Positions 14,346 to 34,726 are shown, numbered from the stretch's first letter. The stretch is 34,726 nucleotides of DNA from an uncultured Candidatus Saccharibacteria bacterium (GCA_964469255.1 CAYYKS010000001.1:1-34726), one strand, 5' to 3'. Notes: generated by a model from the letters alone, not told the origin. Numbers and translations: made by a program.

Positions 14346-14393
14346 CACATAAATACAAAAAGCCAGAGCAGTCTGGCTTTTTGTATTTATGTG
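14346..14393. terminator. 22-bp perfect hairpin abutting the tRNA 3' end
   Basis: cacataaatacaaaaagccaga-gcag-tctggctttttgtatttatgtg. It overlaps the last 2 nt of the tRNA and has T-tracts within both arms. Confidence 0.6.
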
Positions 14394-14463: not shown

Positions 14464-14512
14464 ATTATTTAATTATTTTAAAACCATAGCAATTTTTTCT
14501 ACTAAAGTAAAA

Positions 14513-19663: not shown

Positions 19664-20167
19664 ATGCATAAAAAAGTATTAGTGAATGACACGATGCAAA
19701 AAGGTTATAGTTATCTGCTTACTGAAAAAGCGGGTAAAAACTTTGATCCTAGATTTCACCCAGACCTGAGTCCAAAGGAAATGCTCGAGCTTGGAGTGTT
19801 TGGCGGTAGATATTTGAATGATTGCCAAAGAGAATTCCCTAAAGATTGGTTCAAAAAAGCCAAACTTAGTCCGGAAAAATACGATAAAGATTTAAACTTT
19901 TTTAAAATTAAAGCCAGTCAGTCACTGGCCGAGTGGCAGAAAAAAGGATGGATACATAAAGATGATCCGAGGGGATGGTTTCAATGGTACGCTCGGTACT
20001 ATATGGGGCGAAGACACAAAGATGACGAAAGGCAGATAAAGAGATGGGTAAATATGAAGCGCCACATCAGCTGGCTACAGGGCGCGTGTAGAGTTGGGGA
20101 TGTGTTTTGCCGACCTCGTCAAAGACAAGCCCTGCTCCACTGGGCCTATGATAGCAGGGGGTTATAA
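19664..20167 (+). CDS. Conserved hypothetical protein whose 3' end is duplicated at 21384
   Basis: 167 aa, soluble, Trp/Arg-rich (WFQWYARYYMGRR). It ends ...HWAYDSRGL-stop. Confidence 0.7.
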   Translation: MHKKVLVNDTMQKGYSYLLTEKAGKNFDPRFHPDLSPKEMLELGVFGGRYLNDCQREFPKDWFKKAKLSPEKYDKDLNFFKIKASQSLAEWQKKGWIHKDDPRGWFQWYARYYMGRRHKDDERQIKRWVNMKRHISWLQGACRVGDVFCRPRQRQALLHWAYDSRGL

Positions 20168-20169
20168 TT
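20137..20169 (+). repeat. Direct repeat copy 1 (functional 3' end of the 19664..20167 gene); attL-like
   Basis: ccactgggcctatgatagcagggggttataatt. The first 18 nt are identical to 21384-21401. Confidence 0.85.
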
Positions 20170-20380
20170 TTTTTACCACCTGTTTTATCTTCAAAAATTT
20201 GAATATTTTTTTTCCTAAAATATCTTTTAAAAAATGTGAAGTTTTATATTTACCTATTAACCACACAAAACCTAGTATAATCAATAAAGTAGTACCTGGA
20301 ACTGGGGTCAGCCAAAAAATTACTCCAGTAATGATAAAAAGTAAACCTAATATTTTATGAAAATTTTCTAATTTTTTCAT
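20162..20380 (-). CDS. Small two-TM membrane protein
   Basis: The likely start is MKKLENFHK at 20380. Contains LTPVPGTTLLIILG (a PGPGW-like pattern, low certainty). Its stop overlaps the stop of the convergent 19664..20167 gene. Confidence 0.5.
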   Translation of the reverse strand: MKKLENFHKILGLLFIITGVIFWLTPVPGTTLLIILGFVWLIGKYKTSHFLKDILGKKIFKFLKIKQVVKKL

Positions 20381-21176
20381 GATGTGTTTTATAATCCCAT
20401 TTGAAATTTTCTCCTCCCTCAATGCATGCCAGTAAGCGTTGAATGTGCTCACGCGGAATTCTGGTTTTAAAATAGCTTTTGGTTAAATCCTTTGGGTAAT
20501 GATCAATAGGCTCTGAAGCAATATGAAGCTCGTGCAAATTCTTTATAAAAATCTCTACAGTTTTATCAAAATTTATAGTAGTATCTGCGAAATTCCCTAC
20601 TAAAAAGTGCGGTAGGCTGTGGAATTTTGGATTTTTATTGTAGGCCATAAGCATTCCAGTGACTGTAAAAAATGTCCGGGAATCTATATGCTTAATAATT
20701 GTATCTATTCTTTCTATAGGGTATCCAGATTCTTCTTGTAAGAACTTACTAAACCAATTTGACCCCCATATCATTTTTTCTACGTGGAGAGCGTGCACCA
20801 ATTTTAGTACTGCTGAAATAATTATATAGCCCATCTTTTTCCAAACAGTCATATTTAAACATTCGTTATTTATAAATGGCTCCATGGCTAGTATAGCCTT
20901 ACATCTCTTGTCCAACTTGGCGTTGTTTATAACCAAGAAACCAAAAGAAACCCCGCCTACGATGTATTCATCGACATTTAATTCTGCAATTTTTTGATCA
21001 AAATAATTAGAAAATTTTTTAAAACTTATTTCCCCTTTTAAGGGTGGACTATTTTTGTGAAAACCAGGAAGGTCAATAAAGTGTACTGTGAAGAAATCAG
21101 CTAAAAATTCTTCCAAACCGTGAAGCAATAAACTATTTGTCGGAAACGAATGCACTAATATTAAATGTGGTTTCAT
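20355..21176 (-). CDS. Alpha/beta-fold hydrolase
   Basis: 273 aa. ILVHSFP oxyanion region and the nucleophile elbow GGVSFG (GxSxG). Confidence 0.8.
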   Translation of the reverse strand: MKPHLILVHSFPTNSLLLHGLEEFLADFFTVHFIDLPGFHKNSPPLKGEISFKKFSNYFDQKIAELNVDEYIVGGVSFGFLVINNAKLDKRCKAILAMEPFINNECLNMTVWKKMGYIIISAVLKLVHALHVEKMIWGSNWFSKFLQEESGYPIERIDTIIKHIDSRTFFTVTGMLMAYNKNPKFHSLPHFLVGNFADTTINFDKTVEIFIKNLHELHIASEPIDHYPKDLTKSYFKTRIPREHIQRLLACIEGGENFKWDYKTHHEKIRKFS

Positions 21177-21186
21177 AAATTATTTA

Positions 21187-21220
21187 CAAAAACAGTATAC
21201 CACGAGGGGGTACTGTTTTT
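21187..21220. terminator. Terminator-like hairpin flanked by A-run and T-run, just upstream of the hydrolase start
   Basis: caaaaacagtatacc-acgag-ggggtactgtttttg, an imperfect stem. It could insulate the cassette in either direction. Confidence 0.3.
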
Positions 21221-21279
21221 GTTCAAGTGGAAAGCGGTGAGATTCGCTGATATTACTGGGGGCTGTAGATTGCTTATCG

Positions 21280-21383
21280 CACCAAAATCCAGGCGGTTTT
21301 TGGGTGATTGCCACCTTTTTGTTGGATTTATGGGCTTTTTCACTGCGTTACAAACTGAGCTCGCAAGTTAAAGTTTTTCGAAC
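21280..21383 (+). repeat. GC-rich structured repeat family, copy A (short form)
   Basis: It shares these blocks, in order, with copy B: an A-tract palindrome (caccaaaatcc-aggc-ggtttttgggtg), attgcc, gatttatgg, ctgcgttacaaactg and tttcgaacc. Confidence 0.65.
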
Positions 21384-21416
21384 CCACTGGGCCTATGATA
21401 GTAGGGGACTATAGTT
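21384..21416 (+). repeat. Direct repeat copy 2: orphan relic of the 19664..20167 gene 3' end; attR-like
   Basis: cac tgg gcc tat gat agt agg gga cta tag translates to HWAYDSRGL-stop. That is identical to the real gene end, and all four nucleotide differences are synonymous. Confidence 0.85.
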
Positions 21417-21437
21417 ATCCACTTGACTTTAAATAAG

Positions 21438-21458
21438 ATACCCTATACCATAGGGTAT
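21438..21458. promoter_or_regulatory. Candidate CsoR operator (perfect 9-3-9 palindrome) overlapping a TTGACT promoter
   Basis: ATACCCTAT-acc-ATAGGGTAT ends immediately before the csoR ATG. TTGACT lies at 21423-21428. CsoR operators are TACCC...GGGTA-type palindromes (recalled). Confidence 0.55.
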
Positions 21459-21737
21459 ATGGTCAAAGAAAACATACACAAGCATGGAGAACCCAATGCT
21501 CGGGCGAAAAAAATTATCAATATGGCCGTAGGTAGTATGGCCAGGATTCCTGGTATGGTCGACGGTGGACGATATTGTCCCGAGATTATTCAACAGATAG
21601 ATAGTATCGTAGGTCTTTTGCATAGTGCACGAAAAGAATTATTGAAGGGTCACCTCGAGTCTTGTTTAGTGGAAAGACTAAAGACTGATAAAGAGGGGTC
21701 AATCAATGAGTTATTAAAAATCTACAACATGAAGTAG
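21459..21737 (+). CDS. csoR: CsoR/RcnR-family metal-sensing repressor
   Basis: I prefer the ATG at 21459 to the listed TTG at 21423. The RYCPEIIQQ...H...C pattern gives the Cys-His-Cys ligand set of copper-sensing CsoR. Confidence 0.85.
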   Translation: MVKENIHKHGEPNARAKKIINMAVGSMARIPGMVDGGRYCPEIIQQIDSIVGLLHSARKELLKGHLESCLVERLKTDKEGSINELLKIYNMK

Positions 21738-21775
21738 TTTTTTTGGTGTTTTATTAATAACTTTATATAAAAAAT

Positions 21776-22339
21776 ATGTCTAAAATTTCAACCGCATTAG
21801 CGATTTCTCTTATGATAGTCACCGGTGTTATCGGCTGGGTTGTTGGATATGCCAGCACTCCTGATTATAAAGCGAGTATGTTTGATAAAACCGCGATGGA
21901 CTTGGGTGTTGCCGATCGAAAACTAGATTTGCGTTATATTAATGCAATGATTGCTCACCACAGGGGAGCAATGCTTTTGGCTACAGAAGCTAGTATTCAA
22001 ACACAAAGAAAAGAAATGCAAGATTTATCCGCAATGATCTTGAAAGATGAGCCAAAAGCAATCGCTGAACTTTATAATTGGAAAAAAGAATGGTACGGAG
22101 ACACAAAGGAGGTGAAGGATCCAATAGTTTCTAATCTCGGAAGTTATGACGAAAAATTCGACTTACGTTTTCTTAATGCTCTCATTGCGCATCATGAAGC
22201 AGGTTTAATGATGACAAAAGAAGTAAAAACAAAATCAAGCAGAACTGAGATTTTAAACAATGCAGATGCGGTCGATACTTTTCTGACCACAACCTTAAAA
22301 CTTTTCGAGGACTGGAGAACACAATGGTATAACATTTAA
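21776..22339 (+). CDS. DUF305-family protein (membrane-anchored)
   Basis: 187 aa. Two copies of the FL..MI.HH..A..M motif ([28 protein letters not shown]). Confidence 0.85.
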
Positions 22340-22350
22340 TAAATCACCCT

Positions 22351-24621
22351 ATGACTAATAAAACATTAAAAATTAAAGGGATGCATTGTGCTAGTTGTTC
22401 AACTATTATCACCAACAAGGTTTCTAAGTTGGCGGGTATAGATGATATAAACGTTAATTTTGCCACAGAAAAAGCAACAGTTTCTTTTGATGGAAATGCT
22501 GTCTCTGTAAAACAAATGAACGATGAGATTGAAAAACTCGGGTATACATTTATTGATGAAGATGCACCTAAGGCAGGGGAAGACCACAGTATGCATACTG
22601 GAATGAACCAATCTAAAGAAGAAAAAACAAAAGAATTACTTGTCTTGCAAGACAAGACTCAGTTTGTACTACCTATTGCTCTGCTCGTATTCGCGCTTAT
22701 GATGTGGGACATAGGTGCCAAAATATTTTCTTCAATACCAAATCTGGCTTTGCCGATGTCTATTTTTAACACTGTTTCTATGATACTGGCCAGTGTTGTA
22801 TTCTTTTGGATAGGACAACCTTTTTTGCAAGGAGTAGTAAGGTTTGCTAAATACCGTGTCGCCAATATGGATACCCTGATTGGTATCGGAACCCTCGTTG
22901 CATATCTATACAGTATTATTATTACACTTTTCCCTCAAGTGAGACTTGCTTTAAGTTTACCTGAAACTACTTATTTTGATGTGACTATTGTGGTTATCGG
23001 TTTTGTGGTGTTAGGCAAATATCTCGAAGCACGATCAAAACTTCGTACTGGTGAAGCCATAGAAAAACTTCTTGGTCTGCAGGCAAAAACAGCCTTGCTG
23101 TGGCGCAATGGCTCCGAAGTAGAAGTTCCTGTAAGTGAAGTACAGATCGGAGACATACTTATTGTAAAACCAGGATCAAAAATCCCTGTCGATGGAGAAA
23201 TCGTTGAAGGGTATTCATCTATCGATGAATCCATGATCACAGGTGAATCGGTTCCTGTGGATAAAAAGATTGGTGATATTGTTGTAGGTGCAACAATAAA
23301 CAAGCAAGGTAATTTTAAATTTAAAGCTACAAAAATTGGATCTGATACAGTGCTCGCTCAGATTATAAAAATGGTTGAGGATGCCCAAGGATCAAAAGCC
23401 CCAATCCAGGCATTGGCCGATAAAATTTCTAGTGTCTTTGTACCAACAGTGTTGGTCATAGCTATCGTGACATTGATTCTGTGGCTTACGGTTGGCGCAT
23501 CAGCTATTGGTTTTTCTACCGCTCTTTCTTATGGAATTTTCTCTTTTGTTGGGGTACTTGTTATCGCATGTCCTTGTGCATTGGGTTTGGCTACTCCGAC
23601 TGCAATCATCGTCGGTGTTGGTAAGGGGGCAGAGCATGGTATTCTCATTCGAAACGCTGAAGCCTTAGAAAAACTTAGTCATGTAGATACTGTTGTTCTC
23701 GACAAGACGGGAACCATTACCAAAGGAAAACCAGAAGTGACTGATATTATTTCTTTTGGCGGAGAGTGGACAGAGAAAGACATACTTCGCATCAGTGCGA
23801 GCGTAGAAAAACTTTCTGAACATCCACTAGCAGATGCTGTTGTAGTGAAAGCTGACGAACAAAAAATACTTCTCGATAACGTTGTAAATTTTCAAGCTCT
23901 AGAAGGCGTTGGAGTGGAAGGGTTGATTGGTGCTAAAAATGTATCGATTCACAAACCACTAAAAGATGGATCAAATGCGGATAAAATAAAAGAGTTACAA
24001 GAGCAGGGCAAAACAGTTGTTGTTGTCGAAGTTGATAAAAAACAAATTGGACTTATTGCGCTCGCTGATACCTTGAAAGAAGAATCAAAAGAGGCTGTGG
24101 CTAAACTGCGAGCTAGAAATATTAAAGTGATAATGCTCACCGGGGATAATCATTTAGCGGCCAGCTATATAGCCAAACTCGCGGGTATTGATGATGTAAT
24201 CTCCGAAGTCATACCTGCAGAAAAGAGAGGTAAAATAAAAGAATTGCAAGATGGCGGGGCAACCGTAGCGATGGTTGGGGATGGAATAAACGATGCTCCA
24301 GCTCTAGTCCAAGCAGATGTCGGTATCGCCATGGGAACAGGTACTGATGTGGCTATCGAATCTGCGGGGATAACACTTCTAGGTGGTGATGTTTCAAAAA
24401 TTGCTCAAGCAATAAAATTGTCACACATAACCATGAGGGGAATAAAACAAAATCTTTTCTGGGCTTTTATATTTAATGTTGTTGGTATACCTGTGGCCGC
24501 AGGACTTTTCTATCCATTATTTGGATGGTTACTAAATCCAGCTTTTGCCGGACTGGCTATGGCATTTTCTAGTGTTTCTGTGGTATCGAATTCATTACGA
24601 ATTAAGGCAAAGAAATTATAA
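22351..24621 (+). CDS. copA: Copper-translocating P1B-type ATPase
   Basis: 756 aa. N-terminal HMA (GMHCASCS), TGES, CPC ([11 protein letters not shown]), [15 protein letters not shown]. Confidence 0.95.
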
Positions 24622-24673
24622 ATGTTAAAATAGAATACTAGAGAAAATAGGTGAAATCTTGCAAATAGAATTT

Positions 24674-25285
24674 ATGAACTTAAAACATATAAAATTATTC
24701 ATAGGCTTACTAGCACTTCTTGCTTACATTGGCATAGGGGTGTTTGGCTTGTTTCAATTGGGGCACATAAGTGAGATGCCTACGGCTAATTGCTCATATT
24801 CAGTGAATAACTTCTCGATATGTGAGAATAGTATTAGGCATATTGATCATTGGCATCAATTCTCAAATATAACACTGGCATCCCTATTTATTTTTTCGGT
24901 TTTTATGCTTGGAATAGTTTTGTATTTTTTAAGTTATCACAAGTTTTTAAACCAGAATCAATATTTTTATAGGTGGAAATATTATATTGATTACCAAAAA
25001 TCCTTAAATTATCTACATAAAATAATCACATGGTTATCACGTTTCGAGAATAGTCCTCCTGTGCATAGAGCTTTTATTATTATTTCTAATTTTAAAAAAC
25101 TATGCAAACAAAAAAAACTAAGAATAATGCAAAATATAAATTCATTGACCCAGAAATGGCAATCGATCTTGTGTGCGGAATGGAGCTCAATGCAGAGAAT
25201 ATTAAGGCAAACACAGACTACAAAGATAAAACCTACTACTTTTGCGCTATCCACTGCAAAAATCACTTTGCAGCCGATCCTGTAA
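24674..25285 (+). CDS. Hypothetical membrane protein; 3' end uncertain
   Basis: Two hydrophobic helices and Cys/His-containing loops in the first ~135 aa. The last 184 nt overlap the better-supported YHS gene in another frame, and their translation looks non-protein-like. Confidence 0.4.
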   Translation: MNLKHIKLFIGLLALLAYIGIGVFGLFQLGHISEMPTANCSYSVNNFSICENSIRHIDHWHQFSNITLASLFIFSVFMLGIVLYFLSYHKFLNQNQYFYRWKYYIDYQKSLNYLHKIITWLSRFENSPPVHRAFIIISNFKKLCKQKKLRIMQNINSLTQKWQSILCAEWSSMQRILRQTQTTKIKPTTFALSTAKITLQPIL

Positions 25286-25302
25286 AATATGTAGGAGAAT
25301 AA
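25102..25302 (+). CDS. YHS/TRASH-domain metal-binding protein
   Basis: 66 aa. DLVCGMEL...YYFCAIHCKNHFAADPVKY is the YHS pattern. Confidence 0.8.
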   Translation: MQTKKTKNNAKYKFIDPEMAIDLVCGMELNAENIKANTDYKDKTYYFCAIHCKNHFAADPVKYVGE

Positions 25303-25325
25303 ATTATTAAACTAACTATAAAAAT

Positions 25326-25955
25326 ATGAACAATAATCAAAACAATAAAATAGGATTTGGCATAGGATGGATTGCTGTTGGTCTAATTCTAGGTATGTTT
25401 ATTATTCCAATGATGCGTAGTAATTCAGTTGTTTCAAACAATATTCAAAATACAAGTTCAAAGACTGTAAATGTAGGTGGGGTTGATCAGCACTTCATAG
25501 AGCAGATGATACCTCACCACGATGGAGCTATCGCGATGGCAAACATGGCGTTTGTAAAGTCTAATCGCACAGAAGTTAAAACCCTCGCTAAAGAAATCAT
25601 AGACGCTCAAGAAAGAGAGATAAAAGATATGCAAGGTTGGTATAAAAATTGGTTTGGAAAAGATGTGAATACTCAAAATACATTTTCTATGATGAATGGC
25701 GGAGGAATGATGTCGGGAGGAGGGATGCACATGGGTGGAAAGGAAGATGTCACAGCGCTAGAAAATGCAGCGGATTTCGATAAGGCATTTATTGAGGGAA
25801 TGATTCCACATCATCAATTGGCTATTATGATGGCTCAAATGTTGAAATCTGGTACCAATAGACCCGAGATGCTTACTCTTGCTAACAATATTATTGAATC
25901 ACAGTCAGAAGAGATAACCAAAATGCAAGGTTGGTATAAGAGTTGGTATAAATAA
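25326..25955 (+). CDS. DUF305-family protein with Met/Gly-rich insert
   Basis: 209 aa. Two MIPHH motifs plus MMNGGGMMSGGGMHMGG between them, a methionine-rich stretch of the kind seen in Cu(I)-binding proteins. Confidence 0.85.
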   Translation: MNNNQNNKIGFGIGWIAVGLILGMFIIPMMRSNSVVSNNIQNTSSKTVNVGGVDQHFIEQMIPHHDGAIAMANMAFVKSNRTEVKTLAKEIIDAQEREIKDMQGWYKNWFGKDVNTQNTFSMMNGGGMMSGGGMHMGGKEDVTALENAADFDKAFIEGMIPHHQLAIMMAQMLKSGTNRPEMLTLANNIIESQSEEITKMQGWYKSWYK

Positions 25956-25963
25956 AATTATAT

Positions 25964-26497
25964 ATGAAAATCGAGCATAGATTTTTAATAGGTACGGTAT
26001 TGGTGACTGGTGTTATTGTAGTCATGTTGTCTTTGTCTAGTGAAAAAGACGAGATAAAAGAAGTGGATAGATTCAGTAAAGCCCCATTGGGAGAAAAGAT
26101 AAGTGAAATGAAATCACCACATGTGAAATTAGGGGCTTCTCATGAACCATATAATTCTAACCCTCCTACTTCGGGGCCACATACAGGTAATGATGTAGCA
26201 GGAGCAGGTATTAAAGAAAAACCTGTCGTAGATGAAATCGTTGTGCACAGTTTAGAGCATGGCGCTGTGGTCCTCTGGTACAGAGATGACTTAAAATCTG
26301 AAGATATAAATATGCTGAAAAATATCTTTAATGAAGCCTCTGGGAAAAAAATTATGATGCCACGTTCAAATATGGATACACCCATAGCGCTTACATCATG
26401 GACTTATCTTATGAAATTAGATAAGGTTGACGCTGAAAAAATAAAAGAATTTATCGAAATTAATAATGATAGAGGCCCTGAGAAAGCTTCAATATAA
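25964..26497 (+). CDS. DUF3105-like membrane-anchored protein
   Basis: 177 aa. PPTSGPH and HSLEHGAVVLWY patterns. Confidence 0.7.
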   Translation: MKIEHRFLIGTVLVTGVIVVMLSLSSEKDEIKEVDRFSKAPLGEKISEMKSPHVKLGASHEPYNSNPPTSGPHTGNDVAGAGIKEKPVVDEIVVHSLEHGAVVLWYRDDLKSEDINMLKNIFNEASGKKIMMPRSNMDTPIALTSWTYLMKLDKVDAEKIKEFIEINNDRGPEKASI

Positions 26498-26501
26498 ATA
26501 T

Positions 26502-27509
26502 ATGAATAAATACACATTTCATGTTTCGGGTACTCATTGTGCGTCGTGTAAGATCTTGATTGAAGATGTTTTAACTGAGCAAGATTTTATTAAAAATTCA
26601 AAAGTAGATTTAAATAATGAAACAGTAGAAATCGAAACTGATAGCGAACAGAGTGCGGAAGAAATTGCCACCTTGATTACCAGTAAAATAAAACCAAATG
26701 GATATGCGCTCTCAGTTGAGAGAATGGCGGAAGTTAGAGAGGGTGATGACGTTATTTGGAAAGCTATACCCCTTGGACTTTTATTCTTGGCCTTATTTTT
26801 TGTATTGCAAAAATCTGGGATTTTAAATCTAGGTATCGGTGGTAATACTACTCCAACCACAAGTTTTGTTATTGGGCTCATAGCTTCGGTTTCTTCATGT
26901 CTCGCTATAGTCGGGGGATTGGTTTTGTCGCTCTCTGCAAAAATATCAGAAGACAATACGAGCGATACTAAAACTTTTTTACTTTTTCACATTGGCCGGT
27001 TGGTTAGCTTTGCGGTACTCGGAGGGGTGCTGGGAGTGATAGGTAATGTTGTTGGAATTAATTTTACTTTCACCGCGATGCTCGGGATTATAGCATCCTT
27101 GGTGATGCTCATACTTGGTTTAAATTTGGTTGGAGTATTTGCTAACAATAAACTTACTTTAAACTCAGGAGTTTTTAATTTTTTTAGAAGAATAGAGCAC
27201 AAGACCTTTACTCCACTTATCATTGGTTTTGGAACATTTTTCCTGCCTTGTGGCTTTACTCAGTCTATGCAAGTTTCGGCTATTTCTAGTGGTTCATTTG
27301 TGTCTGGAATGCTCATCATGTTTGCTTTTGCTTTAGGTACATTGCCCATGCTCGCCCTGCTTTCATTTGGGTCAGCATCTTTTGCTCAAAGTAAATATGC
27401 ACCTTTGTTCTTTAAATCTGCGGGGGTTGTGGTTATAGGTCTAGGTATATTTGCACTACTTTCAGGGCTCGCGGGGCTCGGTATTATAAATCCCTTATTT
27501 AGTATTTAA
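26502..27509 (+). CDS. HMA-domain fused to a multi-pass TauE/SafE- or DsbD-like membrane domain
   Basis: I prefer the ATG at 26502 (the previous gene stops at 26497). N-terminal GTHCASCK HMA domain, then about 6 TM helices with a conserved PCG. Confidence 0.8.
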   Translation: MNKYTFHVSGTHCASCKILIEDVLTEQDFIKNSKVDLNNETVEIETDSEQSAEEIATLITSKIKPNGYALSVERMAEVREGDDVIWKAIPLGLLFLALFFVLQKSGILNLGIGGNTTPTTSFVIGLIASVSSCLAIVGGLVLSLSAKISEDNTSDTKTFLLFHIGRLVSFAVLGGVLGVIGNVVGINFTFTAMLGIIASLVMLILGLNLVGVFANNKLTLNSGVFNFFRRIEHKTFTPLIIGFGTFFLPCGFTQSMQVSAISSGSFVSGMLIMFAFALGTLPMLALLSFGSASFAQSKYAPLFFKSAGVVVIGLGIFALLSGLAGLGIINPLFSI

Positions 27510-27536
27510 TTTGGTATAATTCGAATATAAAATTGT

Positions 27537-27923
27537 ATGAATAAAACAGTTTCAATTATTATAACTCTCAGTCTTATCCTTGCCGTAGGGATTATTTTTT
27601 CAGACTCAGGAACGAAAGGCACAGATCAAGCTGTGCAAAATAGTGTCATAAAAGATGGGGTACAATACATTACAATCGAGGCTAAGGGGGGATATTCACC
27701 ACAGACTAGTAATGCCAAAGCTGGAATTCCAACAAAACTAATCGTAAAAACAAGCGGGACGTATGACTGCTCGGCTTCTTTGGTTATCAAATCAATTGGT
27801 TTTCAAAAAATATTATCTCAGAACGGAGAAGAAATAATTGACCTAGGTACTCCAAAGGCAGGGGATAAATTCCAAGGAGTGTGCGGAATGGGTATGTATA
27901 GTTTTATAGTTAACTTTAGTTAA
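27537..27923 (+). CDS. Small secreted cupredoxin-like protein
   Basis: 128 aa. Signal anchor, beta-rich, C...C.MGM-type ending (GVCGMGMY). It is the last gene of the metal island. Confidence 0.55.
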   Translation: MNKTVSIIITLSLILAVGIIFSDSGTKGTDQAVQNSVIKDGVQYITIEAKGGYSPQTSNAKAGIPTKLIVKTSGTYDCSASLVIKSIGFQKILSQNGEEIIDLGTPKAGDKFQGVCGMGMYSFIVNFS

Positions 27924-27968
27924 AGAATAGACGCCCTTGGTTTCTATTCTTATGGCCGTAGAGTACCT

Positions 27969-28198
27969 ATTCCATCAAAACCAAGGCGGTTTTGATGGAA
28001 TTGCCTAGTTTTACTAGATTTATGGCTGCGTTACAAACTGCGGAAGCGGTGACCTGCCTACCGGCAGGCAGGGATTCGCCGATACTGCGGCGGGTGCTTT
28101 TCCATCTCACTACGTTCGCAGGGAAAAGCCTTTCGAACCTCACACGCGAGCAAAGCAGTTTGCTCGCTCGCTCCGCAGTTTTTCACTGCGTTTTAAAC
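27969..28198 (+). repeat. GC-rich structured repeat family, copy B (long form), contiguous with the left 191-bp inverted repeat
   Basis: It opens with a perfect 14-5-14 palindrome, attccatcaaaacc-aaggc-ggttttgatggaat (27969-28001). Next come attgcc, gatttatgg, ctgcgttacaaactgcgg, several perfect 6-9 bp hairpins, tttcgaacc, and a second ctgcgttttaaactgcgg. Confidence 0.65.
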
Positions 28199-28389
28199 TG
28201 CGGTGTATCTTGGACAAAGTTCGAAATTACTTCGAGCTAAATCCAAACGATTAAATTACTAAAAATGGACTCGGCAGGGCGAAACAATATTTTTGGGGAT
28301 ATGGGTTCGCCCTGCCTCGGCTAAATGTTTTTGAAATTCGGCGAGATTCAGAACTCTGCCCGCAGGAGGGGTTTGGGGAGGAATGCGGG
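28199..28389 (+). repeat. Left copy of a perfect 191-bp inverted repeat
   Basis: Checked base by base in 10-nt blocks: the reverse complement of 28199-28389 equals 33311-33501 with no mismatch. Confidence 0.95.
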
Positions 28390-28470
28390 AAAACCAAAAT
28401 TCAAAATGCTCGGTGCCTACGGTCATCATAACATATTGTGTTCACGCAAAAGGGGTGCACCCTCGGCATC

Positions 28471-28783
28471 CGCCTCGGGCATTTCCGCTAGGGCTACGAG
28501 TGCCTAGATGCCTATGAGCGAGCAAACAAAAAGACAAACGGCTCAAATACCAGGAAATGAGCCGTTTGGAAATTGCTCGCCCTTCTTGGGGAGAGGAAGT
28601 TTCCTCTCCCCGGGTCGGGACTACACTCTCGGATTACCGAGAGTGTTCCGCCCTCGCCATCCCCACTCTACGTTTTTCAATATTATGTTTGGTGTGTAGC
28701 TTTCGCTTTCGATTTCTGGATTGCAATTCGGGTCAGGCACTCGTCCTTTAGCCGTGGACACCCTAGCGGAAATGCCCGAGGCG
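28471..28783. other. Non-coding, hairpin-dense element closed by a 23-bp (+9-bp) inverted repeat; a structured RNA or a MITE-like relic
   Basis: cgcctcgggcatttccgctaggg (28471-28493) is the exact reverse complement of 28761-28783, and acgagtgcc (28496-28504) pairs with ggcactcgt (28737-28745). Inside lie perfect hairpins at 28536-28567 (10 bp), 28588-28611 (10 bp) and 28624-28645 (9 bp). No credible ORF. Confidence 0.5.
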
Positions 28784-28882
28784 CAAATACATCGTGCTTG
28801 CCCCAGAGTTTTTGTGATTACACAAAAACTCTACCCCACCCGTGCGTGCACGCGAAAATCACTCCCTGAAAATTTTAAATAT

Positions 28883-29482
28883 TTAAATTCGAGAATACGA
28901 AACTCCTTTCCCAGTTTTTCCGCTTTGTTTTATTTTTCCTTCTTTCTCAAGTTGTGAGAGATACCGAGTTGCTGTGGCATCAGACACGTGCAAATACTTT
29001 TCTACTTCGTCGTTTGTGATTTTGGAATGCTGAAGAAACAAACTCATAACTCGATCGAGTTTCTTGCGTTTCCTAAATTGAATTGCGTTTCGAGCTGTGA
29101 TTAGAAGTTCGCGGGCGAGAGATTTTTTAGATACTTCACGAACAGGCTTCGCCTGTTCGCTTTGAGAAATTTCCTGTTCCTCTAACGGCTCATTTACTGG
29201 TATTTGAGCCGTTTCGGGTTTAGAAGTCCGATTCTCCTCAATTTCAGGGCTAGTTTCTGGTTCTGGCTTTATGGCTTCAGGCTCGTTTTGGGGTGAATTA
29301 TCATTATTGACCGGAATGGCACTATCTGCGTTCCCAGGGCTTTCTAGGGCCTCTGGAGGCAGGTCGGGACTAGTGGAAACAGGGGTAATTTCAGGTGCTT
29401 GCTCGGTAGGCTCTTGGGGGCTTGGTGGAATAGAGTTTTCTGTGGAAGTTGGGTTTTGGGCTATATTTTCCTCGTCGGGCAT
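28883..29482 (-). CDS. Winged-helix DNA-binding protein with a Pro/Glu-rich disordered N-terminus
   Basis: I prefer the ATG at 29482, 7 nt after the ATPase stop. The C-terminal ITNDEVEKYLHVSDATATRYLSQLEKEGKIKQSGKTGKGVSY is a wHTH pattern. Confidence 0.7.
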   Translation of the reverse strand: MPDEENIAQNPTSTENSIPPSPQEPTEQAPEITPVSTSPDLPPEALESPGNADSAIPVNNDNSPQNEPEAIKPEPETSPEIEENRTSKPETAQIPVNEPLEEQEISQSEQAKPVREVSKKSLARELLITARNAIQFRKRKKLDRVMSLFLQHSKITNDEVEKYLHVSDATATRYLSQLEKEGKIKQSGKTGKGVSYSRI

Positions 29483-29489
29483 AAATATA

Positions 29490-31994
29490 TTATACACCTC
29501 TAAAGATTCTGTAATAGACGAGTTTAGAAAACTCTATTGTTGCAAAATAAACTATAACCATTAGTAAAATTATTCCCAAAGATTCGTAGGAAGGTTTAAC
29601 AAATTTTAAAAATCTTTCTCCCCAATAAGTGAATGGCAAAATAATTGCAAGACCCGCTGGAATAATGCAAAGAAGTGAAACAACTACTGACGGCTTAGTT
29701 CCTTGCCAAAATAATTTTTTAGTTCTAATGGAAAAAATAAGCAAGAGTTCAATAAGCGTTGAACCGATAAATAAATTTGTCTGCAATATCGCTGAACCAT
29801 TTTTCTTAAATAGAAGAAAAAATATAAAAACAAATACAGCATTGATAATACCAAACACAAGCGATGTCAAAACAATTTCGTTAACATTGTATGCTCTAGG
29901 TTTTTTTAATTCTAATTTATCAACTTTATCAAAAGATATGGCTATCATCGGTGTATCGGTTAGTAAATTAAGAAGCAACACTTGCACTGGCAACATCGGC
30001 AAAAATGGTGAAAAAATCATGGCGACAGCAACAGCATAAAAATTTCCAAAGTTAGATATAAGGGTGGTTTTTAGATACTTCACCATGTTAGCAAATATCT
30101 CACGCCCTCCTTTTATTCCGTCAATAATAACTGACAAGCTAGAATTTAACAGAACTATATCAGAAGCACTTCGGGCAATATCTGACGCAGTATTAACTGC
30201 TAAAGCTACACTCGCAAGTTTAAGTGCGGGAGCATCATTTATTCCATCTCCAAGAAACCCCACTTCGTATTTCTTTTCCAAAAGTTCAATAACCCGATAT
30301 TTTTGTTCAGGCGATACACGAGCAAAGACATGCACATTTTCAACTGCAATTATTTGATCGGCCTCCGATAATTTCTCAAATTCTTCTCCGTTCATAACTT
30401 CACTTTCGTTTTTGATAATGCCAGTTTTTCTAGCAACAGCAATAGCAACATTTTTACTATCGCCAGTTAGAATTTTTATTCTTACTCCCAACTCCTCGGC
30501 TTGCAGTATTGCGGGGATAGCAGATTCTTTGATCGGGTCGCTAAAAGAAATAGCCCCAATATAATCAAGATTTTTTTCTGCTGTTGCATCATACGCAGAA
30601 CCACCAGTCCAATTTTTCATAGCAAGTGCGATAACTCTTTCTCCTAACATTTCACGCTCGGCAATCCAAATCGAAATTTCTTTTTTTCTTTCTTCGGAAA
30701 TGTTTGAACACAAACTAACAATAATTTCGGGAGCACCACGAACAATCAACTTATTTTCATTTTTTAATTCCACAAGAACACTATTTCTTTTTCTTTCAGG
30801 GTCAAACGGTAGTTCATTGATTTTTTGTGATTGATTGAGTTCTTTGTCTGTGCCAAGTTTTGCAAGAAGTGCAATATCAAATGAACTACTACCTTGCTCT
30901 GACGAAGAACAGAGCGCGCCACTCAAAAGGCAAAAACTTTCATTTTCGGCATGAAAAGCACTGACCGACATTTTATTTTCTGTGATTGTTCCTGTCTTGT
31001 CTACACACAAAACTTCAATGCTCCCCAAGTCCTCAACAGCCGAGAGTCGTTTTACAACTACATGCTTTTTAGCGAGATTAAGCGATCCTTTGGAAAAAGA
31101 AAGTGCCGCAACTACTGGCAAGGTTTCAGGAATTACACTAACCGCAAGTGCAATCGAGAAAAGAATTACATCTGCAAAACTTGTCCTGTTGTCTGCTTTT
31201 TTTACTAAGAAATTTATAATTAAAACAAGCGCGAGGGTCGCAAGAATGATTTTTAAAATCCATTTACTTAATTTTGATATTCCTTTTTCAAATGTGCTTA
31301 CTCCCTCGCTTTCGGCAGTTAATTTTGTTATAGAACCTATTTCTGTATTTTTCCCCGTAGCTACAACAATTCCCGCGCCCTTACCCTGCATAATTGTTGT
31401 GCCAGAAAATCCCATATTTCTTGCATCATGTATTCCAGAAATATTTTTTTGATTCAAAACCAGAGAAGTTTTCAAAACTGACATTGATTCTCCAGTTAAG
31501 ATAGATTCATCAACGAGTAAATTGTCTGCTCGAATGAAACGAACATCAGCAGGCAAAATATTGCCTGGTTCAAGCACACAAATATCGCCCAATACTATCT
31601 CCTCACTTTTTATAACAACTTCAACTGCACCCCTTAAAACTCTGCAATGATTCACTAATATTTTCTTTAGTAATTCAACAGATTTTTGCGAATTGTATTC
31701 TTGAACAAATCCCAAAATCGCGCCTATCAAAACAAACGAGGCGATAAAAATACTATCTATTGTTTCTCCAAGATACAAAGCAAGAAGCGATGCAAAAATT
31801 AAAATATAAACAAATGGCGAAGCAAATTGTTGGAGTAATACCTGCCACCATTTTGTTTCTTTGACCAGAATTTTATTCTGTCCGTATTTTTTTAAATTTT
31901 CCTTTGTTTTTGTTTCAGTTAAGCCGTTGGCACTACTGCCAAATTCCAAATAGATGTCCGAAATATCTTTTTCAGCAAAAGATTGATAGGACAT
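29490..31994 (-). CDS. Cation-transporting P-type ATPase (P2/P3-like; Mg2+/Ca2+-type, ion not assignable)
   Basis: I prefer the ATG at 31994 (the listed start at 32009 is a TTG). Motifs: [34 protein letters not shown], about 10 TM helices. No HMA domain and no CPC motif. Confidence 0.9.
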   Translation of the reverse strand: MSYQSFAEKDISDIYLEFGSSANGLTETKTKENLKKYGQNKILVKETKWWQVLLQQFASPFVYILIFASLLALYLGETIDSIFIASFVLIGAILGFVQEYNSQKSVELLKKILVNHCRVLRGAVEVVIKSEEIVLGDICVLEPGNILPADVRFIRADNLLVDESILTGESMSVLKTSLVLNQKNISGIHDARNMGFSGTTIMQGKGAGIVVATGKNTEIGSITKLTAESEGVSTFEKGISKLSKWILKIILATLALVLIINFLVKKADNRTSFADVILFSIALAVSVIPETLPVVAALSFSKGSLNLAKKHVVVKRLSAVEDLGSIEVLCVDKTGTITENKMSVSAFHAENESFCLLSGALCSSSEQGSSSFDIALLAKLGTDKELNQSQKINELPFDPERKRNSVLVELKNENKLIVRGAPEIIVSLCSNISEERKKEISIWIAEREMLGERVIALAMKNWTGGSAYDATAEKNLDYIGAISFSDPIKESAIPAILQAEELGVRIKILTGDSKNVAIAVARKTGIIKNESEVMNGEEFEKLSEADQIIAVENVHVFARVSPEQKYRVIELLEKKYEVGFLGDGINDAPALKLASVALAVNTASDIARSASDIVLLNSSLSVIIDGIKGGREIFANMVKYLKTTLISNFGNFYAVAVAMIFSPFLPMLPVQVLLLNLLTDTPMIAISFDKVDKLELKKPRAYNVNEIVLTSLVFGIINAVFVFIFFLLFKKNGSAILQTNLFIGSTLIELLLIFSIRTKKLFWQGTKPSVVVSLLCIIPAGLAIILPFTYWGERFLKFVKPSYESLGIILLMVIVYFATIEFSKLVYYRIFRGV

Positions 31995-32001
31995 AAAAGT
32001 T

Positions 32002-32886
32002 TTAAGCAACCTTTTTTACTCCAGCCAGTTCTTTATCTCTTTTAGCTTCTAAATCTGATAAATCTTTTTGTGCCTTTGTGGAGCGTTCTTTTACATATAC
32101 TTCACCTTTTTCGGATTCGGCGGCTGCGTTTAACCAGAAATTTGTTTTTTCTAACATCTGATTAAATAAATCTCTCAATTTTAACACTTTTCCTCTATCG
32201 CTTATGTCTGATGTCATTTCAAGCATTCTTTTGTATTCTGGCTGATTAACTAATTTTCCAATAGTCATACCTATTTTGTATTTATCTTCCGATTTCAAAC
32301 TAGGGTCATAAGAAATCAAGACCACTTCTCCCGTATCGGGCGTTTTAGCATAGCTAAAATCAAGATCAAGATAAGGGGCTAATTGATTTTCTAATGTTGC
32401 GATATTTCCTTTAAAATTCCTCACTTCCTTCACGCCTTCAGGATTTTTTACAAAACCATGAGCTTGCCCATACATATCTTTTTGAGTTAAAAGGTTATTC
32501 CACTCATCGCGATATTTATCATAAATTCCCTTACTTTCTGCATCAAGCGCAACAGCTCCCGCTTCTGTTATGCTTTTTCCTTTAACTTCTGCAATTCTAC
32601 TTTCCGTGTCCGTTTTCACGGCATCAATTTGTGCATCAACTACTTCCGTTCTTTTTCCAATTTCGTCAGCAGAACCACCCATACCCTCAACTTGGGTAAT
32701 TTGAGCAGGTGGTGTTGTTTCAACAGCTTGAGCTTTCGCTAAAACAGCTTCAAGTTTTTTTCTCGCTAACTCAACAACATCCTCGTGGCCTCCCATAGCT
32801 TCCGCATCATCAATCAAACTTTCAATTTCTTCTTTACTTTCTGCTTTCCCTAAATCTCGCTTTAATAAATCTTTTTCTGAATCCAT
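32002..32886 (-). CDS. Hypothetical soluble protein, coiled-coil-rich
   Basis: 294 aa, no recognised domain. It is tightly packed in the operon, stopping 7 nt before the ATPase start. Confidence 0.65.
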   Translation of the reverse strand: MDSEKDLLKRDLGKAESKEEIESLIDDAEAMGGHEDVVELARKKLEAVLAKAQAVETTPPAQITQVEGMGGSADEIGKRTEVVDAQIDAVKTDTESRIAEVKGKSITEAGAVALDAESKGIYDKYRDEWNNLLTQKDMYGQAHGFVKNPEGVKEVRNFKGNIATLENQLAPYLDLDFSYAKTPDTGEVVLISYDPSLKSEDKYKIGMTIGKLVNQPEYKRMLEMTSDISDRGKVLKLRDLFNQMLEKTNFWLNAAAESEKGEVYVKERSTKAQKDLSDLEAKRDKELAGVKKVA

Positions 32887-32903
32887 AAAATTATCCTACT
32901 TAT

Positions 32904-33065
32904 TTATAATCCTAGTGATGCCCGAATCGCATCAACTTTTTGAGCTTCAAGCTCTTTTATATAACCGCGAATAATTTCTTTACGCTCACCGCCAAGCTTT
33001 TCAAGTTTTTGCATAGCTTCGCTATATATTTCTTCAATCTTTTTTGCTTGTTCTTCTGGTGTCAT
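32904..33065 (-). CDS. Small 53-aa helical protein (below the ORF-track cutoff)
   Basis: MTPEEQAKKIEEIYSEAMQKLEKLGGERKEIIRGYIKELEAQKVDAIRASLGL. It is found by translating the minus strand. It stops 17 nt before the 294-aa gene, and an AGGA lies in that gap. Confidence 0.45.
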   Translation of the reverse strand: MTPEEQAKKIEEIYSEAMQKLEKLGGERKEIIRGYIKELEAQKVDAIRASLGL

Positions 33066-33271
33066 AAAATAAAAAAACTGGCAATGAGCCAGCTAAGACG
33101 CAAAAAGCTCCTAGCCAGCGATAGCTCAAAGAGCTACCCATATCCCTTTCGGGATATGACACAACCAGTGTGAACTCTGACTAGGAGTTCTTTATACTGG
33201 TTGTGTTTTTCGACCATGCCCCTGTTGCCAAAGGTTTAGGTCTTCTTATTAAGTTGTATTTTTATATATTA
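33066..33271 (-). promoter_or_regulatory. Candidate promoter plus ~190-nt structured leader with a terminator-like hairpin
   Basis: All on the minus strand. Promoter: TGGATA, 17 nt, TGtTAATAT (-10 at 33266-33271). Then an 11-bp stem acacaaccagt/actggttgtgt enclosing gaactc/gagttc. Then catatccc-gaaa-gggatatg, then ggtagctc/gagctatc. Finally ctggc-tcatt-gccag followed by a T7 run, 8 nt before the ATG. Confidence 0.4.
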
Positions 33272-33310
33272 ACACTCTCTATATTTTTTATCCACAGCCC
33301 AAAACCCCCG

Positions 33311-33501
33311 CCCGCATTCCTCCCCAAACCCCTCCTGCGGGCAGAGTTCTGAATCTCGCCGAATTTCAAAAACATTTAGCCGAGGCAGGGCGAACCCATA
33401 TCCCCAAAAATATTGTTTCGCCCTGCCGAGTCCATTTTTAGTAATTTAATCGTTTGGATTTAGCTCGAAGTAATTTCGAACTTTGTCCAAGATACACCGC
33501 A
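33311..33501 (-). repeat. Right copy of the perfect 191-bp inverted repeat
   Basis: Exact reverse complement of 28199-28389. Confidence 0.95.
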
Positions 33502-33613
33502 CGAATTTGAAATCAATACCCCCGCGAAAAAATGCGCCCGCGCGAAGCGCGGGTGATGTGGGCGAATCTGAATTAAACCCAAACCCCGCCAGGATTTTCC
33601 ACGCTCCGCGTGG
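33502..33613 (-). repeat. GC-rich structured repeat family, copy C (inverted relative to A and B), contiguous with the right inverted repeat
   Basis: The reverse complement reads ggaaaatcctggcggggtttgggt...gattcgcc, which aligns with the copy A opening caccaaaatccaggcggtttttgggtgattgcc. Contains hairpins cccgcgc-gaa-gcgcggg and ccacgc-tcc-gcgtgg. Confidence 0.5.
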
Positions 33614-33782
33614 CTCTTCGTTGCCAATGCAAAAACAAATATGGTAATATTGACTGGTAACCAACCCAACAGCTTCGCTTTTTATTTTGCAATTTTTTAA
33701 TTGTGAATCTTAAAGGGCATCTCTGTCAGTTTAGCGAAAGCTGGATTGGTTACACAGAGTTGCCCTTTTGGGTTTTTATACC

Positions 33783-34726
33783 ATGAACCAAACCAAAAAG
33801 TTTTTCATATATACTCGCAAGTCCACGGATGACAAAGACCGTCAGGTTAGAAGTATTTCCGATCAACTTTCTGAATTGAAAGAATTGGCGATAAAAGAAA
33901 GTTTGGAAATAGTCGATGTCTTTGTCGAAAAGCAGACCGCCAAAATACCAGGTCGTTCCGTATTTAATGAAATGATGTTGAGAATGGAGGCGGGCGAAGC
34001 ATCTGGTATTTTGGCGTGGCACCCCGATCGACTTGCGAGAAATTCCGTTGACGGAGGGAAAATAATATATTTGGTTGATACTGGAGTTATCAAGGACTTG
34101 AAATTTTCAACTTTTTGGTTTGATCCGACACCGCAAGGAAAGTTCATGTTGAGTATCGCTTTTTCTCAATCCAAATATTATGTGGACAATCTAAGTGAAA
34201 ATATTAAGCGCGGACATAGAAACAAAGTGAAGGATGGAATATGGCCTCAAATGTCTCCGCTTGGGTATGTGAATGTAAAAGGTAAAGGCATTGTTCCCGA
34301 CATTCTAAACGCTTCACTTATTAAAAAGACATTTGAGGCATATGCAACTGGAAATTTCACTTTGAGACAAGTCCGCGAAAAGTTTAATGAGCTTGGATTG
34401 AAAAGAAAAAGCGGAAAAGAACTTGCGGTGTCAAACTATCAGCAAATCCTCAAAAATCCCATTTATACAGGACTAATGAAATATAATGGGGAGATTTTTG
34501 AGGGAAAGCACGAGCCGATTATTTCAAAGAAACTTTTTGACCAAGCGCAAGAAGTGATGAGCCGAAAATCCAAACCGCATAGTAAAGGACTGCACCCATA
34601 TATTTATCGAGGATTTTTCCGTTGCGGAGAATGTGGATGTTTCATTACTACCGAACAACAAAAAGGACATCACTACCTGCGTTGCACCAAACGAAAAAAT
34701 CCCTGCACTCAACCTTATATGCGTGA
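33783..34726 (+). CDS. Large serine recombinase, 3' end cut by window edge (not in the supplied ORF track)
   Basis: Manual translation from the ATG at 33783 stays open to the window end (314 codons). The sequence runs MNQTKKFFIYTRKSTDDKDRQVRSISDQ (catalytic Ser context), GILAWHPDRLARN and KFMLSIAFSQSKYYVDNLSENIKRG. A recombinase domain (IWPQMSPLGY...PIYTGL) and the start of a zinc ribbon (FRCGECGC...LRCTK) follow. Confidence 0.9.
   Translation, partial: MNQTKKFFIYTRKSTDDKDRQVRSISDQLSELKELAIKESLEIVDVFVEKQTAKIPGRSVFNEMMLRMEAGEASGILAWHPDRLARNSVDGGKIIYLVDTGVIKDLKFSTFWFDPTPQGKFMLSIAFSQSKYYVDNLSENIKRGHRNKVKDGIWPQMSPLGYVNVKGKGIVPDILNASLIKKTFEAYATGNFTLRQVREKFNELGLKRKSGKELAVSNYQQILKNPIYTGLMKYNGEIFEGKHEPIISKKLFDQAQEVMSRKSKPHSKGLHPYIYRGFFRCGECGCFITTEQQKGHHYLRCTKRKNPCTQPYMR

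Follow-up and report, generated by a model that had tools for sequence, protein, structure and literature searches.

A 34,726-nt stretch of DNA from an uncultured Candidatus Saccharibacteria bacterium (GCA_964469255.1 CAYYKS010000001.1:1-34726; hereafter the window, meaning the whole stretch) runs at its right end into a gene for a large serine recombinase (LSR), and this raises the question of which of the neighboring repeats and gene blocks belong to that enzyme. The features at issue are, in order, a 167-aa gene, a hydrolase gene on the minus strand, a copper operon, ~950 nt of GC-rich noncoding DNA, an ATPase operon on the minus strand, and the LSR gene. An earlier note on this sequence had read them as an integron-like array of cassettes, delimited by three copies (A, B, and C) of one folded repeat family and served by the recombinase. 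It had the gene blocks right (an alpha/beta hydrolase, CsoR-CopA copper genes, and a P-type ATPase operon), and it was also right about a large serine recombinase gene that starts at 33783; we find that this gene runs past the window end and has Resolvase, Recombinase, and Zn_ribbon_recom domains. The 191-nt inverted repeat around the ATPase block is likewise real, its arms (28199-28389 and 33311-33501) being 100% complementary. For the layout as a whole, however, we arrive at another answer: with a probability of about 0.8, the DNA from 28204 to a predicted end near 35270 is a ~7-kb integrative element put in by its own LSR at the 3' end of a tRNA-Ser(TGA) gene. This answer is carried by four direct observations, namely the insertion boundary, the family-wide anatomy, the alternative C-terminal tails of the LSR, and the geometry of the attachment (att) half-sites.

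The element is inserted at the 3' end of a tRNA-Ser gene

Compared with its closest relatives, the window has three variable segments (20170-21383, ~21742-26491, and 28204 to the window end), the last of which concerns us here. Ten contigs from close relatives were gathered because they encode the window's cupredoxin protein. The stretch 27500-28203, which holds cupredoxin and all of B, is 100% identical in nine of them and 99.9% identical in the tenth. Past 28203, all ten run straight into tRNA-Ser(TGA) on the minus strand, followed by DUF5652, ruvX, and pilM; a tRNA search of the window found no tRNA-Ser. Since the relatives join B directly to tRNA-Ser and the window has no such gene, everything from 28204 on is an insertion at the tRNA-Ser(TGA) 3' end. 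B itself must be host flank, since it is kept beside tRNA-Ser in the element-free relatives, and it is unchanged in strains that have neither element nor recombinase at this locus.

Identity to the empty site stops at 28203, and the core TGCGG/GCGG is common to the left junction (attL), an internal attP-type site described below, and the empty site. The insertion is therefore precise with respect to an empty attB, with only a short core in common, and it lies at a tRNA gene 3' end, as in tRNA-targeted islands. The displaced tRNA 3' fragment that can mark the far end of such islands is absent from the LSR element, in which GCGG alone is common to both junctions. A contig from another assembly (L001) terminates exactly at 28199, the outer edge of the inverted repeat, which fits the branching of assembly graphs where a repeat begins. 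The repeats do not, as had been proposed, sit exactly at the seams between gene blocks: B is wholly on the conserved host side, C is within the element, and A is within a separate insertion. Nevertheless, recombination junctions do lie at two repeat edges, the right one of B (28200-28203) and the left one of C (33497-33500).

The recombinase belongs to a large Patescibacteria family

The window holds the first 314 residues of the LSR (33783-34726, plus strand), and the gene continues beyond it. Pfam scores were 63.9 for PF00239 (23.3-bit cutoff), 64.8 for PF07508, and 22.3 for PF13408, a domain clipped by the window end; full-length relatives, at ~500 aa, hold all three domains (resolvase, recombinase, and zinc ribbon). 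Judged from the sequence, the N-terminal motif YTRKS places the catalytic serine at residue 14. We found 7822 homologues, which come from Patescibacteria wherever the source is named. The best 120 of these are 83-91% identical over the 314 aa, and the protein collection does not include this strain's full-length LSR, its best hit being 91% identical. Identity to phage integrases reaches only 25-28%, and the nearest solved structure is SPbeta SprA/YokA (E=8e-9). For the family comparison, 80 genomic loci with LSR homologues were retrieved. In 54 of them, a tRNA-Ser, irrespective of its anticodon, adjoins the LSR 3' end ~1490 nt after the start codon, and the window's own LSR gene is accordingly predicted to end, together with the element, at tRNA-Ser(TGA).

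The N-terminal two-thirds of the LSR is so conserved among co-occurring species that assembly graphs tangle. Many independent contigs (L024-L103) break 100-350 nt upstream of the LSR start, within the repeats described below, or at LSR residue ~314, as the window does.

Further observations concern the surroundings of the family. A second, more divergent LSR gene, 37-85% identical to the first, lies within a few kb of it in L043, L065, L099, L064, L069, L074, L031, and L092, with more nested inverted-repeat pairs around it in L043, L065, and L099. The second unit of L043 stands next to tRNA-Ala, pointing to sister lineages that use different tRNAs as targets. ARAGORN reported tRNA-Ser genes with the unusual anticodon ACT beside LSRs, or beside the mini-elements discussed below, in L029, L050, L055, L056, L060, L081, L092, L093, and L173. 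These are often next to tRNA-Ser(GCT) and may be duplicated or decaying copies that arose from element activity.

Elements of the family share a nested inverted-repeat anatomy

Across the 80 LSR loci, we found a fixed order: a P' arm of ~200 nt, cargo, an inverted P' arm, GCGG, an inverted 120-nt copy of the LSR 3' end, ~25 nt, the LSR gene, GCGG, and the tRNA-Ser 3' end. The last 120 nt of the LSR open reading frame (ORF) constitute the P arm. The 120-nt inverted repeat flanks the LSR gene in ~59 of the 80 loci, and the ~200-nt inverted repeat flanks 1.5-6.4 kb of cargo in ~25. Within most loci, the two copies of either repeat agree at 97-100% of positions, but identity between loci is only 70-88%; the junctions share GCGG while the outer host flanks are unrelated. 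We see this nested architecture in dozens of assemblies made independently, among them contigs of 0.4-0.95 Mb and the complete chromosome OZ246398.1.

Profiles built from 48 LSR 3' ends (P) and 21 P' arms identify the same parts in the window. The distal P' arm is the left copy of the 191-nt repeat (28199-28389, plus strand; P' profile E=2.9e-34). It includes the GCGG core of the left junction, S1 (attL; 28200-28203, plus strand), at which identity to the empty site ends, followed by TTCGAA (28220-28225), a hairpin (28273-28316), and a conserved 32-nt inner block (28358-28389). Each P' arm codes for a conserved peptide in its outer 51 nt; in the distal arm, this is an orphan LSR tail, CILDKVRNYFELNPND and a stop (28204-28254). 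The proximal P' arm is the right copy, inverted (33311-33501, minus strand; P' profile E=5.9e-37). It meets C, which is an inverted copy of the LSR gene's last ~120 nt, that is, of the P arm (33497-33616, minus strand; P profile E=2.6e-13). The minus-strand reading of C is ...EEPRGAWKILAGFGF...GIDFKFVR, continued across the junction by CILDKVRNYFELNPND and a stop. Together, C and the proximal P' arm are a complete attP-type site in inverted orientation (S2, core 33497-33500).

The arms also fold. The 11-bp hairpin of the P' arm has 8 pairs with double compensatory changes across 15 sequences, and the P arm has two hairpins within coding sequence, one of them with 4 pairs changed on both sides; the earlier description of folded GC-rich repeats is hence borne out for C and the 191-nt repeat. 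We also observed that ~142 nt (33641-33782) separate the P-arm copy from the LSR start codon in the window, against ~25 nt in most relatives, although L028 has a similarly long spacer. The window's stretch holds a long hairpin (gggcatctctgt...acagagttgccc).

The attachment site lies within the recombinase gene and shows serine-integrase geometry

The LSR ORF ends in two ways. In ~55 of the 80 loci, it ends with ...FWR followed by R.RDSN.R, reading across the core into antisense tRNA, and in L054, L090, and L095, it ends with ...FWR followed by Y(L/V)LDKVR.FFE.NPD, with a more divergent form in L069. The consensus of this native tail, in the attP configuration, is (C/Y)(I/L)LDKVRx(Y/F)FExNP. 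Both tail types are found inside one 90%-identity protein cluster. Because attP lies within the LSR reading frame, integration alters the C-terminus of the LSR. In ten loci, a tRNA-Ser on the plus strand ends ~140 nt upstream of the LSR, and two of these (L090 and L095) carry the native tail. Their arrangement is that of an LSR unit in flipped orientation, and both orientations exist in nature. Three loci (L050, L056, and L073) have tRNA-Ser on both sides of the LSR.

The spacing of motifs around the core is equally regular. TTCGAA lies at +17 from GCGG in all 22 P' arms, and TTYGAA, which belongs to the tRNA T-loop, lies at +12 in all 54 tRNA-Ser arms. In serine integrases, the zinc-ribbon motif of attB sits 5 bp nearer the center than that of attP (Rutherford et al., PMC3783163). 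The observed shift from +17 to +12 matches this rule exactly, which argues that the junctions are genuine serine-integrase att sites. The recombinase's sites are GCGG-centered attL and attP-type sites, made of the 191-nt arms and the copy of the LSR 3' end, and not a site family composed of A, B, and C as formerly supposed. The functional tie that had been drawn between the serine recombinase and the repeat-bounded ATPase block does hold.

A mechanism of integration is proposed

Judging from these sequence features, the LSR probably catalyzes attP x attB recombination at the GCGG core. The crossover would fall within this core, overlapping the tRNA discriminator base and the last acceptor bases. 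S1 is attL, joining host flank B to a P' arm; S2, joining a P' arm to C, is a complete, inverted attP; and S3, predicted to lie off-window, would be attR, joining the LSR 3' end (P arm) to the tRNA. To the right of the window, we predict an LSR ORF that ends in the inverted copy of 33497-33616, then GCGG-AAGCGGTGAGATTCGAAC (tRNA-Ser TGA), DUF5652, and ruvX. With attP inside the 3' end of the reading frame, the enzyme carries the conserved tail in the attP form and an antisense-tRNA read-through when joined to tRNA. The 191-nt repeat comprises the P' half-site and two hairpins, present at both attL and S2, and C is an inverted duplicate of the P half-site.

An intact inverted attP at S2 would permit integration in either orientation, by way of either attP copy, or flips of the LSR and cargo segments. 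Were S2 to recombine with a second tRNA-Ser site, the cargo would part from the integrase, leaving an LSR between two tRNAs and an integrase-less cargo unit. Both of these predicted products were observed as configurations.

Several points weigh against this interpretation. The right junction (attR) was not recovered, as a same-population contig found via RuvX homologues stops 83 nt upstream of ruvX; attR and the LSR 3' end of the window's copy are thus off-window and are predicted from 54 related loci. The orientation of cargo between perfect 191-nt repeats is beyond the resolution of a short-read contig, and no other cargo orientations were found in other assemblies, whose contigs stop at or before the repeats. 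No recombination directionality factor (RDF) was identified, although no dedicated search was made, and apart from occasional XRE regulators, the LSR has no conserved small gene in its company. Excision, a circular form, and inversion are predictions from sequence only. Finally, conservative serine recombination can neither create nor homogenize an inverted attP duplicate, and hence accounts neither for the origin of this duplicate nor for the lasting identity of its copies.

A more ambitious version of the same scheme is possible, but we consider it doubtful. It posits two modules, an LSR unit within inverted P half-sites and a cargo unit within inverted P' half-sites. By means of the retained inverted attP, the integrase would flip its own gene, the switch of tails serving as an RDF-free control of directionality, and would drop or swap cargo between tRNA sites as a natural recombinase-mediated cassette exchange, with A and B as landing pads or relics of the same machinery.

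Among explanations that dispense with integration by the LSR, a programmed inversion switch survives best, though we consider it unlikely. Under this explanation, the LSR would flip the ATPase segment between the 191-nt repeats, as phase variation of the Hin/Gin kind and not as mobilization. Such a switch would account for perfect inverted repeats that flank a segment adjoining a serine recombinase gene, for the recurrence of this layout in ~25 loci, and for recombination cores at the outer edges of both arms. However, the arms are att half-sites of an element demonstrably inserted with respect to an empty site, and the cargo differs in nearly every element, which leaves no common switched gene. 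Furthermore, the left site is of attL type and the right one of attP type, a pair that serine integrases do not normally recombine (Rutherford et al., PMC3783163). A cargo unit with perfect repeats also occurs with no LSR adjacent to it (L106), as described next.

The cargo is a single, separable module

The cargo module of the window (28390-33310, minus strand) consists of a 490-nt noncoding stretch, the ATPase operon, and a LOOT RNA. The operon, all on the minus strand, encodes a winged helix-turn-helix (wHTH) protein (28883-29497), the P-type ATPase (29490-32009), a 294-aa protein (32002-32886), and a 53-aa protein (32904-33065). The LOOT RNA (RF03000; 33120-33242, minus strand) scores 87.2 bits in Rfam over model positions 1-121, so that its full-model score is above the family's gathering threshold of 46.4. 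We considered it as a component of the element and rejected this, because it is absent from nine other LSR loci; it therefore belongs to the window's cargo. It lies 55 nt upstream of the operon for the 53-aa protein, the 294-aa protein, and the P-type ATPase, placed like a cis-regulatory leader, and is kept with the operon in L106.

Across the family, the DNA between the long inverted repeats is highly variable, and to this extent the cargo is cassette-like, as first suggested. Specifically, 83 cargo ORFs from 24 elements fell into 72 clusters, nearly all singletons, and a Pfam scan of 72 of these ORFs recognized XRE regulators, several restriction-modification systems, AAA_13, Ltp, Ddl, and transporters. 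There is no cassette array, however: in the loci compared, each LSR element has only one cargo module, and the layout here is one cargo module with a single integrase and a single tRNA target.

In element-free relatives, a homologous ATPase module is found at another locus, near tRNA-Met and tRNA-Asp, with no LSR beside it (L106). It is bounded by a perfect 195-nt inverted repeat of its own, the outer end of which starts with TGCGG and encodes an LSR-tail-like peptide, and in L106, one arm abuts the tRNA-Asp trailer. Since the relatives' module exists without an LSR, the cargo unit between inverted P' arms is a discrete module separable from the integrase.

The existence of this second locus, with its perfect repeats and no LSR, is what might favor an independent transposon, in which the 191-nt repeats would be terminal inverted repeats and the ATPase block would have landed beside an unrelated recombinase. 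We regard this as very improbable. The block contains no transposase, and neither locus has a target-site duplication; the outer 50 nt of the repeat start at the GCGG core and encode the C-terminal tail of the LSR family; and the contact of the L106 arm with the tRNA-Asp trailer is what is expected for an LSR attL.

We made some further observations on the noncoding part of the module. The stretch 28390-28882, downstream of the wHTH gene, is GC-rich (46-49% GC versus ~38% for the window) and folds into numerous stable hairpins, among them a perfect long-range pair of 23 nt (28471-28493 and 28761-28783). Folded jointly with B, it has a z-score of -9.7, and it is ~75% conserved in L106. An Rfam scan of 27900-29000 at a permissive threshold gave no match, so that B and the GC-rich stretch represent no described RNA family. 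The module has two copies of a 31-nt palindromic element, the first in the noncoding stretch (28536-28566) and the second within the wHTH coding region (29184-29214). Both copies are kept in L106 (7551-7581 and 8193-8223), and the element may be the operator of the wHTH protein.

A and B are relics of tRNA-linked mini-elements

The kinship claimed for A and B is confirmed: 21261-21357 matches 27954-28040 in direct orientation with ~70% identity over 97 nt, and the local alignment score is 51, whereas none of 1000 shuffles scored above 27. C is not demonstrably of the same family and matches the profile of LSR 3' ends; B and C align no better than shuffles, and A and C have a single 22-nt stretch in common, of which 19 nt are identical. 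The possibility that A and B are decayed P or P' arms gains no support from the arm profiles, neither of which detects them (E>10 for the P profile). Likewise, an A/B profile found no copy in the 80 other LSR loci, and we therefore conclude that A and B are not part of the LSR element; the same result disposes of the proposed link between this repeat family and homologues of the recombinase, and with it of A and B as recombinase-linked sites.

Instead, A and B are relics of ~130-160-nt mini-elements at tRNA 3' ends. A metagenome scan with profile filtering found homologues of the second half of B at the 3' ends of tRNA-Ser (L173, L177, and L200), tRNA-Trp (L170), and tRNA-Gln (L221). Mini-elements that are whole on their contig (L170, L173, and L177) measure ~140-160 nt each. 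Beside the intact tRNA, in these three as in L200 and L221, they have the conserved end GCAGTTTTCACTGCGTTTCAAACTGCGG, a 27-nt end shared by the family; on the far side, the three whole copies have a 15-20-nt direct repeat of the adjoining tRNA's own 3' end. They also contain a conserved hairpin (GAGCAAAGCAGTTTGCTC) and acceptor/T-arm-like ("top-half") pieces that co-vary with the adjoining tRNA. The mini-elements have no Rfam family.

In the window, A is a detached, complete copy (21229-21357, minus strand) that starts with a tRNA-Ser 3' fragment (GGAAAGCGGTGAGATTCG plus CTGAT) and ends with TTTTTCACTGCGTTACAAACTG. B consists of two tandem relics in host DNA (27954-28203, minus strand), between the cupredoxin gene and the tRNA-Ser site, with a pseudo-attB (CTGCGTTACAAAC-TGCGG-AAGCGGTGA) at 28026-28052 and the conserved mini-element end at 28172-28203. 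A 27-nt fragment of the tRNA-Ser attB region spans the core at 28026-28052, and two more fragments of this region lie at 21232-21246 (15 nt from the tRNA 3' end) and 21336-21349. The displaced tRNA 3' fragment is thus present in A, B, and their relatives, as repeats of 15-20 nt. L159 resembles the window in that its conserved end adjoins a P' arm and not a tRNA. The 22-nt match between A and C and a similar terminal motif hint at a possible kinship of A and B with the P/P' arms. As to origin, the mini-elements may be remnants of att sites left by integrative elements, duplicated pseudo-tRNAs, or genuine tRNA-like RNAs.

The hydrolase block and the copper operon are independent of the LSR element

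A lies within a 1.2-kb insertion (20170-21383, minus strand) that is absent from relatives and encodes a 72-aa membrane protein and the alpha/beta hydrolase (20355-21176). In relatives without this block (L014-L019), the 167-aa gene is followed directly by csoR. The block is bracketed by two 33-nt direct repeats on the plus strand, 88% identical to each other. Copy 1 (20137-20169) now forms the 3' end of the 167-aa gene and was provided by the inserted block, and copy 2 (21384-21416) is the ancestral 3' end, displaced by the insertion. Both encode HWAYDSRGL (nine residues and a stop), every difference is synonymous, and the single copy of the relatives resembles copy 2, not copy 1. The block has no recombinase. 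In L078, an LSR element carries a homologous hydrolase (72% nt identity) as cargo. The repeats have an att-like signature, which points to a probable separate site-specific insertion that gave the 167-aa gene a new 3' end.

The host copper-resistance operon (21423-27923, plus strand), recognized by Pfam and by synteny in relatives, comprises csoR, DUF305, copA, a 208-aa gene, DUF305, DUF3105, HMA-DsbD_2, and cupredoxin. Its identity to relatives is 91% for csoR, 69-75% for copA, 97-98% for the last 1.7 kb, and 100% for the final 704 nt (27500-28203). A divergent, longer allele, 69-75% identical to that of relatives, is confined to the copper core (~21742-26491), and its edges coincide with neither A nor B. 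The earlier note had proposed that recombination between A and B excises this block, and had named relatives with the same gene order but no repeats as evidence to the contrary; such relatives exist, as they are syntenic and have the operon without A. We accordingly rejected this excision.

These results bear directly on the integron-like array, in which A, B, and C would delimit cassettes and the recombinase would excise the copper island (A x B) and invert the ATPase operon (B x C). The homology and direct orientation of A and B, the contact of B's right end and C's left end with recombination cores, and the variation of cargo across the family all fit it. However, B is unchanged where recombinase and element are missing, the A/B profile is empty in the 80 other LSR loci, C is of another family (the LSR 3' end), and the copper operon is syntenic without A, with a divergent core unbounded by A or B. 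In addition, the enzyme is of the serine type, and attC-type sites and a cassette array are absent. We thus find this array a shade less credible even than the independent transposon. Least probable of all is an assembly artefact behind the join of B to the inverted repeat, or behind the inverted repeats as such. Short-read assemblies do break at these repeats, L001 ends at 28199, and numerous contigs begin within the P'/P arms or, like the window, stop at LSR residue ~314; but the nested architecture is present in dozens of separately made assemblies including the complete chromosome, with a junction grammar consistent to the base.

Two palindromes of the CsoR-operator type (GTATACC..GGGGGTAC / ATACCCTATACCATAGGGTAT) were also observed, one upstream of the hydrolase gene (21186-21222) and one upstream of csoR (21437-21465). 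By virtue of the former, the inserted hydrolase may be copper-regulated.

Relationship to known systems and significance

Among the closest known systems are the phage and prophage large serine integrases (phiC31, Bxb1, A118/LI, and SPbeta SprA), with which the LSR element shares the Resolvase, Recombinase, and zinc ribbon domains, short att sites that have a small core and lack a long duplication, and the 5-bp inward shift of attB. Unlike these, it has attP inside the integrase ORF, so that integration changes the C-terminus; it keeps a complete inverted attP copy (~320 nt) upstream of the gene; and it has no phage genes and no recognizable RDF, and targets any tRNA-Ser 3' end.

With tycheposons, the LSR element shares a small size, variable cargo, a site-specific integrase, insertion at tRNA genes, and tRNA snippets beside the target. 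In 910 of 937 tycheposons, the recombinase is of the tyrosine type, and replication genes are often present (bioRxiv 10.1101/2020.12.28.424599), whereas in the present family, the enzyme is always an LSR and no replication genes were seen. Moreover, the LSR element leaves no tRNA fragment, just a common core of 4-5 nt, and its nested inverted att duplication is absent from the tycheposon description (bioRxiv 10.1101/2020.12.28.424599).

The Hin/Gin/Cin/Pin systems also have a serine recombinase gene by or inside an inverted-repeat segment, much as the LSR gene is bracketed by the 120-nt repeat and occurs in both orientations. These systems have a small enzyme with a C-terminal helix-turn-helix, ~26-bp inverted sites, and a fixed gene, and use an enhancer; the present family has a ~500-aa LSR and 120/~200-nt repeats, and is mobile with varying cargo. 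A likeness to the yeast 2-micron plasmid (Flp/FRT) is one of architecture only; Flp is a tyrosine recombinase and the plasmid replicates. The predicted LSR circle would consist of two unique segments split by long perfect inverted repeats, with a recombination site at each repeat center and the recombinase encoded in one segment. Integrons, finally, likewise have a recombinase next to exchangeable cargo. They differ in having an IntI tyrosine integrase, attI, and promoterless cassettes ending in attC; here, the only recombinase is a serine enzyme, each element has one cargo module that brings its own regulators, and neither A nor B behaves as a cassette boundary, the pair being absent at the 80 LSR loci and B persisting without a recombinase.

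A literature search found no description of this LSR element family or of an attP within an integrase gene, and the family is apparently both undescribed and very widespread in Patescibacteria. Genomes of this group, also called the Candidate Phyla Radiation (CPR), are tiny, and to our knowledge, few CPR mobile elements have been described. One LSR lineage with thousands of occurrences over many CPR classes, tRNA-Ser as its constant target, and hypervariable cargo is likely a major route of gene flow in the group. An attP inside the gene, two alternative C-termini, and a perfectly maintained inverted attP duplicate are unusual for a serine integrase and make the element a natural setting in which directionality control or cassette exchange could be tested. 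Serine integrases whose tRNA targets are well defined and conserved are also of practical interest to genome engineering, and annotators may note that the repeats of these elements break CPR assemblies at predictable points.

Elsewhere in the window, we noted a GC-rich island (13000-14500; 51-54% GC) with a 271-aa ORF that has no Pfam match on record. Within it, a perfect palindrome with 24-nt arms (14344-14395) adjoins the 3' end of tRNA-Arg(GCG) (14391-14463).

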